The notes below the pieces were generated by a model. That model was not told the DNA's origin and made no database searches. It saw nothing but the letters and a program-made list of their open reading frames with translations. From Candidatus Poribacteria bacterium (GTDB lineage Bacteria > Poribacteria > WGA-4E > PCPOR2b): a DNA stretch of 64,000 nt. The translations under genes were made by a program, and so were the position numbers. Positions 1,453 through 64,000 of this stretch are shown here, one piece after another. Each line of letters starts with the position of its first letter. Position 1 is the stretch's first letter. The stretch covers positions 736,001 to 800,000 of the forward strand of contig OZ242326.1 of the NCBI GenBank assembly GCA_965208325.1. Direction: 5' to 3'.

Positions 1453-4400
1453 TTACGATTTCGGTTGCATCGCTGCCTGAATCTTGCGCCGTTGCTCTTG
1501 AAGTTCCGCAACACTGGGGGCAAGGCGAAGCGCTTCGGCATTAGCTTTCAATGCATCGCCATATCGCTTCTGTGACAAGTAAAAATCCGCCAAATCTTTG
1601 TGTAACAGCGGCTCGTCCGGTGCAATGCGAATTGCACGCTTGTACGAATCAATTGCTTCGCTAATTGCCTTCTCGCCCGCATATATATTGCCTAAAATAT
1701 AATGCCCACGCCACAAATTTGGGTTAACTTCCAAAGTCTTCTCTGCATACTGGCGCGCTTCCGGCATCATGTTTTTAAGACGGTAGATAGATGCCATAGC
1801 CGCGAATATTTCAGCGGGAAGATTTGAATCTAACGCCTCAAGGCGTTGGTAAGTCCGCAGCGCTTCATCATTGCGTTCTTGGCGTTCATAAATAGGTCCG
1901 AGTAGGAGGTAAAAGTCTAGACGATTTGGTTCAAGTTCAATCGCAGTCTCAATGGCTTTAGCGGCCTCGTTTAATTTCCCTTGGCCTTCGTTGATGACCG
2001 CGAGTTGAACGTAGCCTTCCGTATCGCGAGGATTAGTTCGCAAGGCCTGTTTCACGACCTGTTCAAGTCGCTTGAGCTCGTTTTGCTCCTCCTTACGAAC
2101 CAATCCGGCTGCAACACCAAGATGGTATCGAATCACCTCGTCGCCGGGATTAATTGCCAATCCACGGTTAAAATGGCCAAATGCGTCCTCATATTCTCCC
2201 GCGACATGGGCAAGTTGGCCTTGAATGAGATTCTGAGTGGCGTCGAAGTAAAGGGCCGCCCGTTTTCTCACTTCGGTTTTCTCCGCCATCGATTTACCAT
2301 AATTCTTCAGGTACGGGTTGACGCGTTCGCGGTGTTTCGCCAGTGCTGAAATAATTCTCCTACTGGCTCCTACAGACTGGTTTGTACGGATTAACCCCAA
2401 ATTCGGACGGCTATCCGAATAAACAGCGCCGTATCCGGCATAGTTTCGGAGAGCATCCTCACTCATCATAAACGAATCCAGCAACGACATACCGTCAAGG
2501 TCATCCCCTGCGAGCGCATCGCTGATGTTTGCAATTTGTGTTCTGCCCATAAAGTCTACAAAATCAATCTTGAGTCGTTCAGATGTGCCAATCAAGACGG
2601 CGAAGTCAGGCGAGTATTTGTACCATAGTGTTGTGTGAGGAAAAACTTCAAGCATTGTCCTCAAAGCCATTTTGAAATGCACGTCGGAGTTTAACCGGAG
2701 CGGAAGCCACTGGCATAAAATACCATCTTCGTTCAAAGCCCGTTTGCAGAGTCGGTAGAATTCTGTCGTGTTGGTTTGCGAATACCATGCCGCGGGAGAG
2801 GATGTGAAGGACCTCACTGAGATGATGTCGTACTTTTCGCCCGTTACTAGCAGATGGTTCCGCTCGCCATCAATCGTCAACTTGAATTGGGGATTGCTGA
2901 GAATATGGTGATTTACATTAGCGAAATGTGCGCGCGTTTCTTCGACGACATCTTTTGAAGATTCGACCGTATCCACATAAACGCCATGTTTCGTCATTGA
3001 GTAGGCTGTTAAGCCCATGCCGAACCCAACTACAAGTGCACGTTTCGGCTCAGGATGTAAGAGTACCGGGAGGTGGGCGATTAGACGATGTGAAGGAGAG
3101 TCCCAGCGGGAAGTATCAGCAATCTTACGCGCACCTATATACAGCTGATGGGCTCCCTTATCATCCTTTAGCACCGACACATCAGCATCAACGCCATGTT
3201 TTTGGGAAATGATTGTGCTGCCCACGCCTCGTGTGAGGTAGCCCGAATTGCTGATGAACAGAGGGTTATCTCCTGTGTATAACACAACCAGTCCGAACCC
3301 AACGGTAAGGATTACTCCACCGGCCGCTGTGCCATTAAGGATTTGCCTGGTGCGTACGGCGTTAGCTTGTGCTGAGAAAACCGTGGCGCAACCTAAAATC
3401 GCGCTCAGGGCCGATGTCAGGACAATGCCCGGACGAACGCCAATAAACGGCACAATGATGAACCCCGCGCAGAAAATTCCCGCGATTGCACCAACGATGT
3501 GAATCGCGCTGACGATGCCAATACTGCGCCCTAGTCGCGCGCCGTCGTGTGAGAAAATCCGCACTGCCATCGGAAAACACCCGCCAATCAACACTGCTGG
3601 AACAACTATCACGACCGTACACCCAAAAAGCGACGCAATCCCGCCGCCGATTGGAAGTAGTTCGCTCAGAATCGGTATCGACGCTACGCCAAAAATCCCG
3701 ATGGCAATCTGCATCAATCCGAACAAACTAAAAAGAGACTTAACGCGGTCAGTTACTCGAGCGAATAACATACTCCCGATAGCGATGCCAAACAGTAAGA
3801 CTGCCAAGAAAAATGTTGTCGCCGCAAAATCGAGCGAGTGCACCAAGGCACGCCTCCAGAGCATTGCATAAGTCATCGTGCAGAAGCCGGAGACAGCAAA
3901 TGCCAAGAAAGCTAACCGATTTGGCGCAAGCGGTTCGGTTGTATCTGGGCGAGATTCCGCGTGCGTTGCGGTTATATGCTTCTCGTCCTTAACACTCGAA
4001 ATACCACTTACCGACTGCCGAGGCAGCCCAAAGGCTACGGCTGCGGCAACCAAATTAATGCCCGCGCATAAATAAAGAGACGGCTGAACCCCTAAAGTTT
4101 GTAATAGGAAATATCCCACCGCGAGGCATCCGATGGCGCCGCCAAGCATCTTGATACCGTTGAGAACGCCGACGTGGAATCCAAGACCGTCCGCACTCCG
4201 CACGAAAACCCTGCACAACACAGGTAATGTGCCTCCCATCAGAATCGACGGGACAATCAGGACGAGAAAGGATAAAGCAAACCGAATGAACAAAAGCGAA
4301 TAGAACTCCCCATTAAGCGCGCGAAAGGCTAGAATGTGCGCGGCGTTTAGCACATTCAATAGCAATGGGGAGACAAGGGCAAATACACCGATACCTAATT

Positions 4401-25152: not shown

Positions 25153-26109
25153 TTAACCAATCCGATATTTACCCAACCCGAACATGGCGTTTTTGCCGAT
25201 GTGTAGGAGTTCCCCTAGCACAACAAACGGCATAAACATCGCTAATTCACCTTCATACGTCACATTACCAACCAGTCCGTCGAACTGCGCCTTCTTATCC
25301 TGCCGCGAGGTATGTTGTGTCACATCTTTCCACTCAAGTGAGGTTTCGGTCGTCTCAACTGTCTTCGCCTTTTCAATTAGTTCTTTAAAGTCGATTTCTA
25401 GCGATTCGCCGCAATGGAAATACGCCAGCGCCGAGATGCGTTCAATCAAATGCTTCCAGAAGATGTGGAACGGCAGCTTATCCGCTAACTTTCCGTCATG
25501 CGCAATCCGTGTTGGTGCCAGTAGGTGGAGCGTCAAGGTATTCAACGAGTCAAAACGCGCAGCGAGCAATGATAAGGCTTCCCTCTGAATCTCGGCGAAT
25601 CTGAGCGCGTTATCAAAATTGTGCACCATCTGCGTGTCGCTATCATAGACCGATTCTCTGCTGTCAGTCAGGACTTGGGTTAACTGAAAGCGTCCACGCT
25701 TCTTGCCAATGCCACTCTCGCCCAAGTCGCGGAAACTGACTAAAAAATATGGGAGGTGATCAATAGCGCGGCCGATGAGTGTAAGTTGAAATGCGAAGGA
25801 TTCGCCGCGGCGGTATTCGCCTTGCGTGCCCAACGGGTCAATTACGAACGGCCTGGGCACATCGTCGTAAGCTGGGAATTGATCCGCGCCCTCGAAGGGG
25901 GCGGTTTCGAAGTTGTAAGGGTAGGAACAGACTGTATTGAGGGTGCATTCTCGGCAGTCAATGGATCCTTGCGTGCAGACCAACTTTCGGAATGCCGGTC
26001 CGAATCCGGCCTGGAGGGTAGAGCCGGTGTAAGGCGGCATCATAATTGTCGATCTCGCCGTTAGAATCACATGGTAACGCGCAAGACGGAAGTTTTGGAG
26101 TAAGCTCAT
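25153..26109 (-). CDS. cas6: CRISPR pre-crRNA processing endoribonuclease Cas6 (orphan)
   Basis: GSTLQAGFG, Cys cluster C-x6-CxxC-x5-C, VPRPFVI, and C-terminal G-loop HIGKNAMFGLGKY. Confidence 0.88.
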   Translation of the reverse strand: MSLLQNFRLARYHVILTARSTIMMPPYTGSTLQAGFGPAFRKLVCTQGSIDCRECTLNTVCSYPYNFETAPFEGADQFPAYDDVPRPFVIDPLGTQGEYRRGESFAFQLTLIGRAIDHLPYFLVSFRDLGESGIGKKRGRFQLTQVLTDSRESVYDSDTQMVHNFDNALRFAEIQREALSLLAARFDSLNTLTLHLLAPTRIAHDGKLADKLPFHIFWKHLIERISALAYFHCGESLEIDFKELIEKAKTVETTETSLEWKDVTQHTSRQDKKAQFDGLVGNVTYEGELAMFMPFVVLGELLHIGKNAMFGLGKYRIG

Positions 26110-60367: not shown

Positions 60368-61162
60368 CTAATAATCTTGGTCGGACTTGTCATGATCATG
60401 TTTCGACTTGTCATAGTCGTGTTTTGGTTTCCCATGTCCATGGTCATGTTTCCACTTGCCATAACCATAGTCGTGTTTCGACTTGCCGTGTCCACAATCG
60501 CGCTTCGACTTGCCATGGTCATCATAGTGTTTCGACCTGCCATGTCCTTGGCGGCGATGCCGCCGGTCCCGCCGATGATCACGATCCTTAAATTTTTTCT
60601 TGCCGTGTCCACGCCAGTCTTTAAACATCTCGAAACCGCCGCGTTTGCCGGCGACGCCGGAAAGCGTCAGTAACGCTTCCTGCCGCGGGGTTAACCCTTC
60701 AAGAAGAGAGGCCTCCAACGCCTTTAATTCTGTCTCTAGCGCGGACCGCTTATTTTTGAATTCATCAAGTGTAGACGCGACCGTCGCGTCATCGCCCGCG
60801 ACCATGGTTTTCTTGAGGTCTTTTAACATCGGCCCTAACGCCTTGGCGCGCATCATTCGATGCTGTAGCACAGCTTCAATCTTCGGCGCTAGGCTTTTTG
60901 CGTCTTCGTCCGAGAGATTCAGCTTCGCAAGGACTTTCTTCGTTTTCCATTCGATACGTTTCGCGGCCTTTAGCTTCGCCATCTCCATTTTCTCAGCCTT
61001 TTCCTGCTCCCACTTCTCGGATTCAGAATCTTCTGTTTCAGCTTCCGCATGCGCGAGGAAGAAGCAGCTCCCGGCGAGAACAAAGGCAATCGTTACCAAA
61101 AGCGCAATTGAACGATTAAATGCCAACTTAGACAACTTAGGTTTGTGCGACAAAATAGACAT
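60368..61162 (-). CDS. Exported helical protein with His/Lys/Asp-rich C-terminal tandem repeats
   Basis: Signal peptide (AHA|EA), Spy/CpxP-like LTPRQ helix, and GHGKSKHDY-type repeats. Confidence 0.75.
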   Translation of the reverse strand: MSILSHKPKLSKLAFNRSIALLVTIAFVLAGSCFFLAHAEAETEDSESEKWEQEKAEKMEMAKLKAAKRIEWKTKKVLAKLNLSDEDAKSLAPKIEAVLQHRMMRAKALGPMLKDLKKTMVAGDDATVASTLDEFKNKRSALETELKALEASLLEGLTPRQEALLTLSGVAGKRGGFEMFKDWRGHGKKKFKDRDHRRDRRHRRQGHGRSKHYDDHGKSKRDCGHGKSKHDYGYGKWKHDHGHGKPKHDYDKSKHDHDKSDQDY

Positions 61163-62129: not shown

Positions 62130-62501
62130 TTAAGACCCGAATCGTAGGATGTGACCGTCTGGGTCCTCGACTCTTAGCTCGTATGCCCACGGATAGTTTG
62201 TCGGCGTTTCTCGAAACGCCGCGCCCTTGGCTTTGAATTCCTCATAAATTGCGTCTGTATCCGAAACGCCAATCCAGAGCCAGGTGCCGGGCTGGCCTTG
62301 TCCCCCTTCGCATAGCAAGATGGGAAAATCATCGCGAGACACACTTGCGAAGTTGGGCGGATCGCCCCAGTCCCATTCTTTTTTAAAGCCGAGGCGGTTA
62401 ATATAATAGTCAACGCTCACAGCGACGTCCTTAACATATAAAATGGGTGTGATGCACTCTAACTCAATTCTAGTTTCTTTTTTATCGTTTGTTTCCGACA
62501 T
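62130..62501 (-). CDS. Glyoxalase/bleomycin resistance (VOC) family protein
   Basis: PILYVKDV..S..YY...LGF and PW..ELRVEDPDGHILRF. Confidence 0.9.
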   Translation of the reverse strand: MSETNDKKETRIELECITPILYVKDVAVSVDYYINRLGFKKEWDWGDPPNFASVSRDDFPILLCEGGQGQPGTWLWIGVSDTDAIYEEFKAKGAAFRETPTNYPWAYELRVEDPDGHILRFGS

Positions 62502-62653: not shown

Positions 62654-62737
62654 ACTGCTGGTCATTGTGTGATTGTGGAAGCGTTAAAATTGCGCTAAAG
62701 CGGCACGTTTGATGTTTCAAAAACGGCTGAGCGCTTC

Positions 62738-63065
62738 CTATTGATGTGCTTCCATATACGCCCGCAACACGGCGTTCATGCGGGGCTGGTAACCTTTTCC
62801 CTGAGATTTGAATCACTTGAGCACATCGCTGTCAGGGATTATTATCGCGCGGAAAATCCTATCGCCTTCGCTATTCGCTCAGTTGATCCTCATCTTTCGG
62901 CTGAGCGTCGGGGTCCGATACCGCTGCCGCGTTAATTTCGGCCTCGGTCATATTTTTGACCCTCTCCCAATCGGTTTGCGTGTTTTTCGGGAGGTTTTTG
63001 AGAGAAACTCTCAAGGTACGTTCTTCTTTCACGGCAATTCGCTCCACTTGTTGAAATGATGAGGC
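62738..63065 (-). pseudogene. brnA: Decayed BrnT/BrnA toxin-antitoxin module
   Basis: BrnA-like TDWERVKNMTEAEINAAAVSDPDAQP ends in a stop. The C-terminal part DSDVLK*FKSQGKGYQPRMNAVLRAYM is in another frame with W replaced by TGA. Only a BrnT-like C-terminal remnant IISTSGANCRERRTY lies upstream. Confidence 0.75.
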
Positions 63066-63077
63066 CGACCTACAAAT

Positions 63078-63106
63078 AGTCTACAATGTGTACATACAAA
63101 TGTCAA
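63078..63106 (-). promoter_or_regulatory. Sigma-70 promoter in front of the brnTA remnant
   Basis: Minus strand TTGACA-17nt-TAGACT. Confidence 0.6.
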
Positions 63107-63165
63107 ACATATGTGGGCTACCCCATGAAACGGTATCCCTATTCAATCTCAACTCTTTGCCTCGA

Positions 63166-63476
63166 GTAAAAACCTCTACCACGATGGAAAATGGACTGAA
63201 GGCTTTTTCATTCCAGCGCAGATGTCATAATTTCGCGCGGTAGTATCAATCTCTACCGCGATGAAAATCGAATTGGTAGCTTTTTCATTCCAGCGTAGAT
63301 GTCATATTTTCGCGTGACAGCAACAGCTTTTACCGCGTGAATAGCGGACTGACGGCTTTTCATTCCAGCGTACCTGTCATATTTTCCCATGACAGTAACA
63401 ACCTCTACCGCGAGGAAAATCGGACTGAAAGTTTTATTCAATAATGCATAATGCGTAACCCGTAAAGAGTAACAAC
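63166..63476 (+). CRISPR. Degenerate CRISPR mini-array: four repeats plus a partial fifth, first three spacers homologous
   Basis: 36-37-nt repeats at 63166, 63243, 63320 and 63395, consensus about GTAACAACCTCTACCGCGATGAAAA(T/G)CGGACTGAAAG; partial GTAACAAC at 63469; spacers of 40, 40, 39 and 37 nt. Confidence 0.72.
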
Positions 63477-63559
63477 ATTTAATGCTAGGTAAGGCGATAG
63501 TCTTGCCTGTTGAACTTCAGTCCGCCTCCAACGCAAAGTGATTAAGTGGGCTGGATATC

Positions 63560-64000
63560 CTACCGTGAACGCCGAGCGCCGGAACCTCTTGAGACGAGTC
63601 CAACTGTCAGGAAATTGGCGGCTAGCCCCCAAACCCCGGCGTGGATACCCATGGGTTTCGTTGCGATTCCCAGCCCAGCAAGGTTGGCGAACATGATTGC
63701 CAGTGCAACGCAGGTTCCGATCACGAGCCCCGACAAAACCGCATCGGAACGCAGCGATTTCAAATGTACGCCGAGAAAGATCGCGGGCGCGGCTTGACAC
63801 AACAGTTCGAGTTTAATCTCTGTTAACCGCCAGAGTGTTTGTGGGAGTTGAATTGCCAGAATCACGAGTATTGCCATAAGCCCCCACGAGAAAACTTTAC
63901 CCGTGACGGTCAGGCGATGCTGAGAAGACTTTGGACGAATCCGCATATACAGGTCCTGCGTGAATACGGAGGAGATCGCGAGGAGCGCGGAGTCAACGGT
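63560..64000 (-). CDS. Sodium:solute symporter family protein, C-terminal part (enters from the right edge)
   Basis: Frame open to the edge: TVDSALLAISSVFTQDLY..., an SSS-type motif, followed by TM helices. Confidence 0.82.
   Translation of the reverse strand, partial: TVDSALLAISSVFTQDLYMRIRPKSSQHRLTVTGKVFSWGLMAILVILAIQLPQTLWRLTEIKLELLCQAAPAIFLGVHLKSLRSDAVLSGLVIGTCVALAIMFANLAGLGIATKPMGIHAGVWGLAANFLTVGLVSRGSGARRSR

Follow-up and report, generated by a model that had tools for sequence, protein, structure and literature searches.

A degenerate CRISPR mini-array in a poribacterial chromosome, most likely a decaying relic of the genus's ancestral CRISPR locus

Results

We analyzed a 64,000-nt stretch of a poribacterial chromosome (genome G000; the whole stretch is referred to here as the window), near the end of which, at positions 63166-63476, lies a short array of degenerate CRISPR-type repeats. 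To its left are a glyoxalase-family gene, the remains of a brnA-like antitoxin gene, and a noncoding stretch; a solitary cas6 gene is located 37 kb away among housekeeping genes. The features are as follows, in window positions.

25153-26109, minus strand: solitary cas6, intact (PF10040, 5.3e-16; 68% amino acid identity to the Cas6 of the main CRISPR locus by tblastn)
62130-62501, minus strand: glyoxalase-family gene (PF00903, E=1.8e-10), the left synteny anchor
62674-63047, minus strand: brnA-like antitoxin pseudogene, split by a dispersed repeat of REP/MITE type at ~62834-62891
63048-63165, no strand: what was once the brnA/cas1 intergenic region, immediately 5' of R1
63166-63202, plus strand: repeat R1, 31/37 identical to the main-array repeat, with handle ACTGAAGG; canonical hairpin not predicted
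63203-63242, plus strand: spacer copy S1, a variant of one spacer
63243-63279, plus strand: repeat R2, the most degenerate, with handle ATTGGTAG
63280-63319, plus strand: spacer copy S2, whose first 34 nt equal the single copy of congener G002
63320-63355, plus strand: repeat R3, 36 nt, canonical 4-bp hairpin kept, with handle ACTGACGG
63356-63394, plus strand: spacer copy S3, a variant of the same spacer
63395-63431, plus strand: repeat R4, 35/37 identical to the main-array repeat, with a perfect 8-nt handle, ACTGAAAG
63432-63467, plus strand: "spacer 4," a heptad microsatellite of TAATGCG type
63468-63508, plus strand: fragment R5, ~9 nt of a repeat 5' end followed by a dispersed REP/MITE remnant

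Tandem Repeats Finder (TRF) reported a 77-nt period at 63165-63429 (3.5 copies; 76% matches), and a direct-repeat search recovered five in-register copies of the 5' 25 nt of the repeat at spacings of 77, 77, 75, and 74 nt. These results agree with coordinates computed by script (four repeats of 36-37 nt; start-to-start distances of 77, 77, and 75 nt) and bear out the original prediction, made from the sequence alone, of four such repeats and a truncated fifth. The fifth scored as a copy with 76% matches in the repeat search, which also paired it as an inverted repeat with 62859-62873; only its first ~9 nt belong to the repeat. The R5 stretch has an 18-nt exact match to three dispersed copies of the same element that splits the brnA remnant, and it is 78% identical to its counterpart in G002.

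The spacers depart from those of an ordinary array. Rather than being unique, the three true spacers are all variants of a single sequence, as had been predicted, and the 4.7-Mb genome has exactly three occurrences of their 14-nt core (TTTTCATTCCAGCG), all in the mini-array. The stretch between R4 and R5 had been taken for a unique fourth spacer. This assignment had to be revised: the stretch comprises approximately three heptads, TRF assigns it a period of 7 in G002, the two genomes differ there by a 7-nt indel, and 17 nt of it recur identically elsewhere in the genome. It is thus a heptad microsatellite and not a true spacer. A scan of the whole window against Rfam at the gathering threshold gave 0 matches. 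Just 3' of the mini-array, in noncoding surroundings that are 94% identical to G002, positions 63515-63525 read CTTCAGTCCGC, the reverse complement of the repeat part GCGGACTGAAG, possibly what remains of a repeat unit in inverted orientation.

Given that TRF sees a plain 77-nt tandem repeat and that a 62-amino-acid open reading frame (ORF) on the minus strand (63253-63441) spans units 2 to 4, the locus could in principle have nothing to do with CRISPR and be a simple 77-bp minisatellite or a gene for a small protein. This reading is almost certainly wrong, however, since it is refuted by the homology of the repeats, R4 above all, to the cas-linked array described below. As a gene, the ORF was rejected: it changes frame from unit to unit because the period (77, 77, and 75 nt) is no steady multiple of 3, and the single-unit locus of G002 does not preserve it.

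We searched the same chromosome with a degenerate repeat pattern. Both forward-strand matches fell in the mini-array, and 42 reverse-strand matches formed one block at 3,307,256-3,310,498. This block is the main array, with 42 regular repeats GTAACAACCTCTACCGCGATGAAAAGCGGACTGAAAG (GTAACAACC...ACTGAAAG) and spacers of ~35 nt, located 2.5 Mb from the mini-array. Of the genes surveyed, those upstream of it are cas4, cas1, a DUF433/PIN-like gene pair, a brnA-like gene, cas3, cas5t, cas7/cst2, cas8b1/cst1, cas6, a REP-associated tyrosine transposase, and a WYL regulator. The main locus is a type I-B system. The original prediction had proposed a search for an intact array with the mini-array repeat and had named the lack of any relation to a cas-linked array among the grounds for its own refutation. 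Such an array exists, beside type I-B cas genes, and differs from R4 at 2 of 37 positions and from R1 at 6 of 37, with R2 and R3 more divergent. The mini-array shares its repeat with a cas-linked I-B array and is therefore CRISPR derived. With nhmmer, R1 to R4 gave E values of 6e-9 to 2e-6, scores that are circular because the profile was built from those same repeats.

Beyond the two arrays, the nhmmer search for solitary repeats returned a single convincing match, a 17-nt core located 5' of the cas6 gene in the main locus; another match, of 35 nt (E=0.18), was set aside, as by eye it appears to fall in the 3' end of a protein-coding gene. The 17-nt core, CGCGATGAAAAGCGGAC, is an exact copy of the repeat hairpin core 22 nt upstream of the cas6 ATG (G000:C1:3321533-3321549; L010 11533-11549, minus strand), with ~0.01 such matches expected by chance genome-wide. 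It could be a Cas6-binding or autoregulatory site in the 5' untranslated region of the cas operon. DNA searches with the region upstream of the main-locus cas6 found no match in the congeners, and no CGCGATGAAAAGCGGAC-like motif is present upstream of the solitary cas6.

The repeats of the mini-array have decayed unevenly. By RNA folding, the canonical 4-bp hairpin is the minimum-energy fold of the main repeat, but among R1 to R4 it is so only for R3; R2 folds into a different, longer hairpin that sequesters its handle. The handle itself is perfect in R4, near-canonical in R1, and degraded in R2 and R3. These features bear on the idea that the locus is a small defense array still at work, supplying I-B crRNAs against an unsampled virus, with the triplication yielding more crRNA. 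For such an array, it counts that the repeat family is that of an active-looking I-B locus and that the R3 hairpin and R4 handle are intact. However, the canonical fold is lost in three of the four repeats, and the flank upstream of R1 has no match to the main-array leader, which is itself visibly homologous to the leader of congener G003.

The original prediction had also stated that no cas gene is adjacent. This holds for the immediate neighbors of the mini-array; it overlooked the intact solitary cas6 within the same window. The gene is present in all four genomes of the genus (82-96% amino acid identity in G001 to G003). With the main-locus Cas7 as the query, a search did not find Cas7 in two of the three congeners searched. 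The solitary Cas6 is a possible processing enzyme for a transcript of the mini-array.

To the left of the mini-array, the window retains the flank of an older CRISPR site. Two congeners have this site intact, with cas1-cas2-cas4, a leader, and an array of 20 to 29 repeats. In G003, Pfam and repeat searches gave the order glyoxalase gene (minus strand), brnA (minus strand), cas1, cas2, cas4, leader, and 29-repeat array; in G001, a glyoxalase homologue, cas1, and an array with 22 repeat-like matches follow in the same succession. The glyoxalase homologues, which lie directly upstream of brnA-cas1 in both genomes, have 78% DNA identity to the gene in the window. The brnA remnant of the window matches the brnA-like gene downstream of the main-locus cas3 on both sides of its insert (62674-62833, 91%; 62892-62946, 93%), and within the insert, 62859-62889 matches dozens of copies dispersed in the genome. 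While the brnA orthologue of G003 was recognized as an antitoxin (PF14384 BrnA_antitoxin, 3e-18), the 58-amino-acid ORF of the window had no Pfam match. A sponge-metagenome contig, X5, has a different, 71-nt insert at the 62834-62891 site.

The intergenic region between brnA and cas1 in G003 aligns to window positions 63048 to ~63155. The alignment ends ~10-20 nt before R1, and past this point G003 runs on into cas1. The window and G002 have this deletion junction in common; therefore, the segment from cas1 through most of the array had already been lost in the ancestor that G000 and G002 share. The comparison across related genomes that the original prediction had suggested thus shows a full array at the site in G001 and G003 and the same junction in G002. 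In addition, the derived bases of R3 (T9, GAATAG, and C35) recur in the degenerate repeats that terminate the arrays of G001 and G003, which fits descent from the trailer end of the old array. In a consensus scan, the captured intergenic region contained a promoter-like element on each strand (minus strand, TTGACA-17-TAGACT, 63106 to 63078, 10/12; plus strand, TTGAAA-18-AATAGT, 63051-63080, 9/12, a pattern match only). The region may therefore have promoter activity. Among the sequencing runs on record, none listed as RNA contained the stretch, and the four runs compared with it consist of contigs.

The number of spacer units differs among close relatives. G002 has a single spacer copy between an R1-like and an R4-like repeat, and its R1 is split by a 1.3-kb insertion (L022 2323-3642) with three minus-strand ORFs of 110, 177, and 105 amino acids that belong to no clear family (the sole Pfam match, to DUF6773, is weak). 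Contig X5, which is independent of the reference, contains three copies and shows 2 differences from it across 62913-63700. In a second sponge metagenome, X6, one contig passes from R1 directly into the heptad stretch, with 241 nt missing, and other contigs carry spacer units. Both X5 and X6 are short-word contig assemblies, and the X6 joint could be an assembly collapse, though its letters differ from the reference. Unit copy number among close relatives thus appears to be 3, 1, and possibly 0. The spacer was not found in G001 or G003. Their full arrays each contain one spacer that occurs twice as an exact duplicate (G003, L023 6660-6694 and 6807-6841; G001, L031, before the repeats at 4089 and 4449); therefore, repeat-mediated spacer duplication is common in the genus. 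Unequal recombination between repeats would be the simplest cause of the triplication in the window.

We next compared rates of change within the locus and around it. From S3 to R5, G000 and its closest congener, G002, are identical at 125 of 154 positions (81%), compared to 93% for the glyoxalase gene, 89% for the brnA remnant, 91.5% for the old intergenic region, 94% for the 3' flank, and 95% for a symporter gene. The mini-array is therefore the fastest-drifting segment of its neighborhood. Within it, however, the spacers have changed less than the repeats: when the three paralogous units are aligned, 18/37 columns are variable in the repeat and 10/40 in the spacer (Fisher P=0.036), in agreement with what had been noticed by eye at the outset. 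For the first 27 spacer columns alone, 4/27 vary (P=0.007), for a segment picked after the data were seen. The 34/34 identity between S2 and the G002 copy has a chance of ~0.02-0.1 under uniform drift by a rough estimate, and the 14-nt core is unchanged in all four copies seen (three here and one in G002). The two tests are not independent, and the positive signal is modest. Nevertheless, this conservation at the spacer 5' end is the pattern that would be expected of a guide under seed selection.

These data raise the second option of the original prediction, a repurposed guide RNA. In its CreA/CreR-type form, the old spacer would have been co-opted as a crRNA-like regulator that guides the type I-B Cascade in trans and binds a chromosomal promoter through its seed without cleavage, the three copies raising the dose and repeat decay tuning processing. 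Along with the better-kept spacer 5' part, this reading can draw on the near-canonical handles of R4 and R1, the plus-strand promoter-like site upstream, an I-B Cascade and two cas6 genes in the same genome, and the persistence of the locus in two species ~10% diverged and a third, metagenomic strain. On the other hand, sequence change is faster across the mini-array than in its flanks, the handles of R2 and R3 are degraded, the G002 copy is cut off from the upstream region by the insertion inside R1, one X6 contig is without any spacer units, and the spacer is missing from G001 and G003. We consider a regulator of this type, the main rival to the reading favored below, somewhat unlikely.

Target searches bear on this idea and on the defense array alike. 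The protospacer pattern TTTTCATTCCAGCGNANNTGTCAT had 0 matches in viral contigs and, among species-representative genomes, matched only congener G002; in metagenome contigs, it matched one locus, which lacks repeats, shows no similarity outside the pattern, and was taken as chance. A blastn search of 63195-63325 against 50,697 phage records returned no match. In the host genome, the 14-nt core had 65 matches with two or fewer mismatches, 3 of which are the array itself. A seed scan that ignored every 6th base and called for a seed of at least 9 gave 83, 83, 66, and 56 matches, compared to means of 36-42 and maxima of 75-111 for shuffled spacers; genome-wide seed matches are thus at the level of shuffled spacers, i.e., chance. 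Of the seed matches listed, not one falls within the cas locus or close to the mini-array. The best, at 143218, is intergenic and without an evident link to the locus, and two matches conserved in G002 that we examined are both inside coding regions. The promoter-like region of the solitary cas6 contains a 9-nt match (TTTTTCATT), which was rejected as too short and T rich. Therefore, the proposed comparison of the spacer core with the host genome and viromes yielded no target beyond chance, the cas locus included. This outcome is weak evidence, because partial seed matches of 10-12 nt, the length on which known regulatory guides rely, are indistinguishable from chance in a 4.7-Mb genome.

Matches exceeded those of a reversed-pattern control ~1.8-fold (73 versus 40 in G000; 65 versus 34 in G002). 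By eye, the opposite strand of the spacer resembles a ribosome-binding site plus start codon (GGAATGAAAAAG), and this resemblance is probably the reason for the excess. A gene-start-like sequence is also what a protospacer taken from a phage gene would look like, a point in favor of the working defense array. However, searches of viral contigs, metagenome contigs, and phage records turned up no protospacer, and divergence of the three copies at a quarter of their positions (10/40) is unexpected if they serve against one target, though escape variants could explain it. Taken with the state of the repeats, we regard continued defense as quite unlikely.

Discussion

The reading that we favor, with a probability of about 0.6, is that the mini-array is a decaying relic left over from the ancestral CRISPR locus of the genus. 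Of the two options in the original prediction, this corresponds to the first, an array end in decay that was amplified by duplication. The repeat of a cas-linked array, the synteny of the site, the deletion junction, the derived bases of R3, the variation in copy number, and the rate of drift relative to the flanks all point this way. The second option, the repurposed guide, draws weak support from the relative conservation of the spacer 5' part; no target was found for it. We infer that the mini-array lacks a function of its own, even if it may be transcribed and processed.

The relic could have arisen as follows. The ancestral site would have comprised the glyoxalase-brnA pair, then cas1-cas2-cas4, a leader, and a long array. 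In the lineage of G000 and G002, a deletion would have removed cas1 through most of the array, so that the repeats left over came to abut the old brnA/cas1 intergenic region. A paralogous block (brnA-cas1-cas4-leader-array) now sits beside the type I-B effector operon 2.5 Mb off. One old spacer would then have been multiplied by unequal recombination between repeats, followed by drift. A transcript of the relic may start in the promoter region captured from the cas1 side and may be cut by either Cas6 paralogue. The resulting RNAs would have no detectable target, and the locus would be in the course of being lost.

The relic reading places the locus among orphan and degraded arrays, which it resembles in several ways: its degenerate repeats are homologous to those of a cas-linked array, it has neither a leader nor cas genes beside it, its position and content are kept only in the closest relatives, and no target was found. 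It differs from them in that its history is readable, with cas1-cas2-cas4 and a full array retained at the syntenic site of congeners and a deletion junction common to two species, and in that the true spacers still present are all copies of one. Shmakov et al. (2023; PMC10120712) describe such repeat pairs near type III loci as "degraded, non-functional CRISPR repeats," a judgment passed on mini-arrays near type III loci that show neither conservation nor targets.

Comparison to regulatory mini-arrays is less favorable. CreA antitoxin RNAs of CreTA modules and the cas-regulating mini-CRISPRs termed CreR have been described (PMC8501985; PMC9458426; bioRxiv 10.1101/2023.03.10.532045). According to PMC10120712, regulatory mini-arrays occur in ~18% of I-B loci, with a spacer partially complementary to a cas promoter, and mini-arrays are proposed to originate from terminal array units or truncated arrays. 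The present element is similar in that R1 to R4, which are degenerate, surround a better-conserved spacer, in its type I-B context, and in the origin from terminal units or truncated arrays that is proposed for mini-arrays (PMC10120712). In contrast, CreA and CreR lie inside or beside cas operons and have a spacer seed plus PAM match in a nearby cas or toxin promoter. The element studied here is 2.5 Mb from the I-B operon, has no such target that we could find, contains four repeats and three spacer copies, and varies in copy number among close relatives.

A more specific arrangement that does not depend on proximity to cas genes can be imagined: a chromosomal guide cassette, rescued from the dismantled array, in which the seed-proximal 30 nt have been kept and the spacer tripled as the repeats decayed, which would use the captured cas1-side promoter and the solitary Cas6, and which would direct the I-B Cascade in trans to silence a chromosomal or viral target. 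Such a cassette would amount to a regulator of CreA/CreR type that had moved away from the cas locus. We hold this arrangement to be unlikely.

Racr are RNA anti-CRISPRs, and the original prediction had offered a Racr-like decoy as a further role. Like solitary repeat units and phage mini-arrays, such RNAs derive from repeats outside a normal array and could compete for Cas6 or Cascade, a property that the present element might share. However, the idea is a misfit, as the locus is chromosomal, syntenic between G000 and G002, and flanked by housekeeping genes with no phage genes. For phages, viral crlRNAs have been described (bioRxiv 10.1101/2024.10.29.618823), and the regulatory mini-arrays in the I-B host-phage cases of PMC10120712 lie upstream of cas6.

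In a literature search for Poribacteria and CRISPR, no such mini-array was evident by title among the matches listed. The locus offers a clean, datable case of the dismantling of a CRISPR locus, in which two species share the junction and two retain the intact locus. The remaining mini-array is of a type from which regulatory crRNA-like RNAs have been proposed to arise. Should the weak spacer conservation prove genuine, the element would represent a regulatory guide far from cas genes, of a sort that current surveys confined to cas loci would overlook; otherwise, it is an ordinary relic and cautions that a conserved spacer between degenerate repeats can arise by array decay. In its sponge-symbiont host, most of the old CRISPR locus has disappeared, and the remainder, with its one triplicated spacer, has so far given no indication of a new role.

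Additional observations

The REP/MITE-type element (with ends like ...GATCAACTGAGCG.ATAGCGAAGGCGATAG...) was also found inserted in CRISPR repeats in the arrays of three genomes, at or beside the same repeat position, after GATGAAAAG/GATGAAAAGCG (G000 main array, ~3307280-3307530; L031, 4595-4770 and 4995-5170; L024, reverse complement, 4700 and 6227). This recurrence suggests that the repeat hairpin is a preferred insertion site of the element. The main array of G000 ends abruptly, and by eye the stretch downstream of its last repeat (G000:C1 ~3307000-3307250) resembles a transposase or integrase fragment. In the window, a 27-nt tandem repeat (60412-60547; 5 copies; 72% matches) lies inside an ORF of 264 amino acids with a C terminus rich in His, Asp, and Lys.
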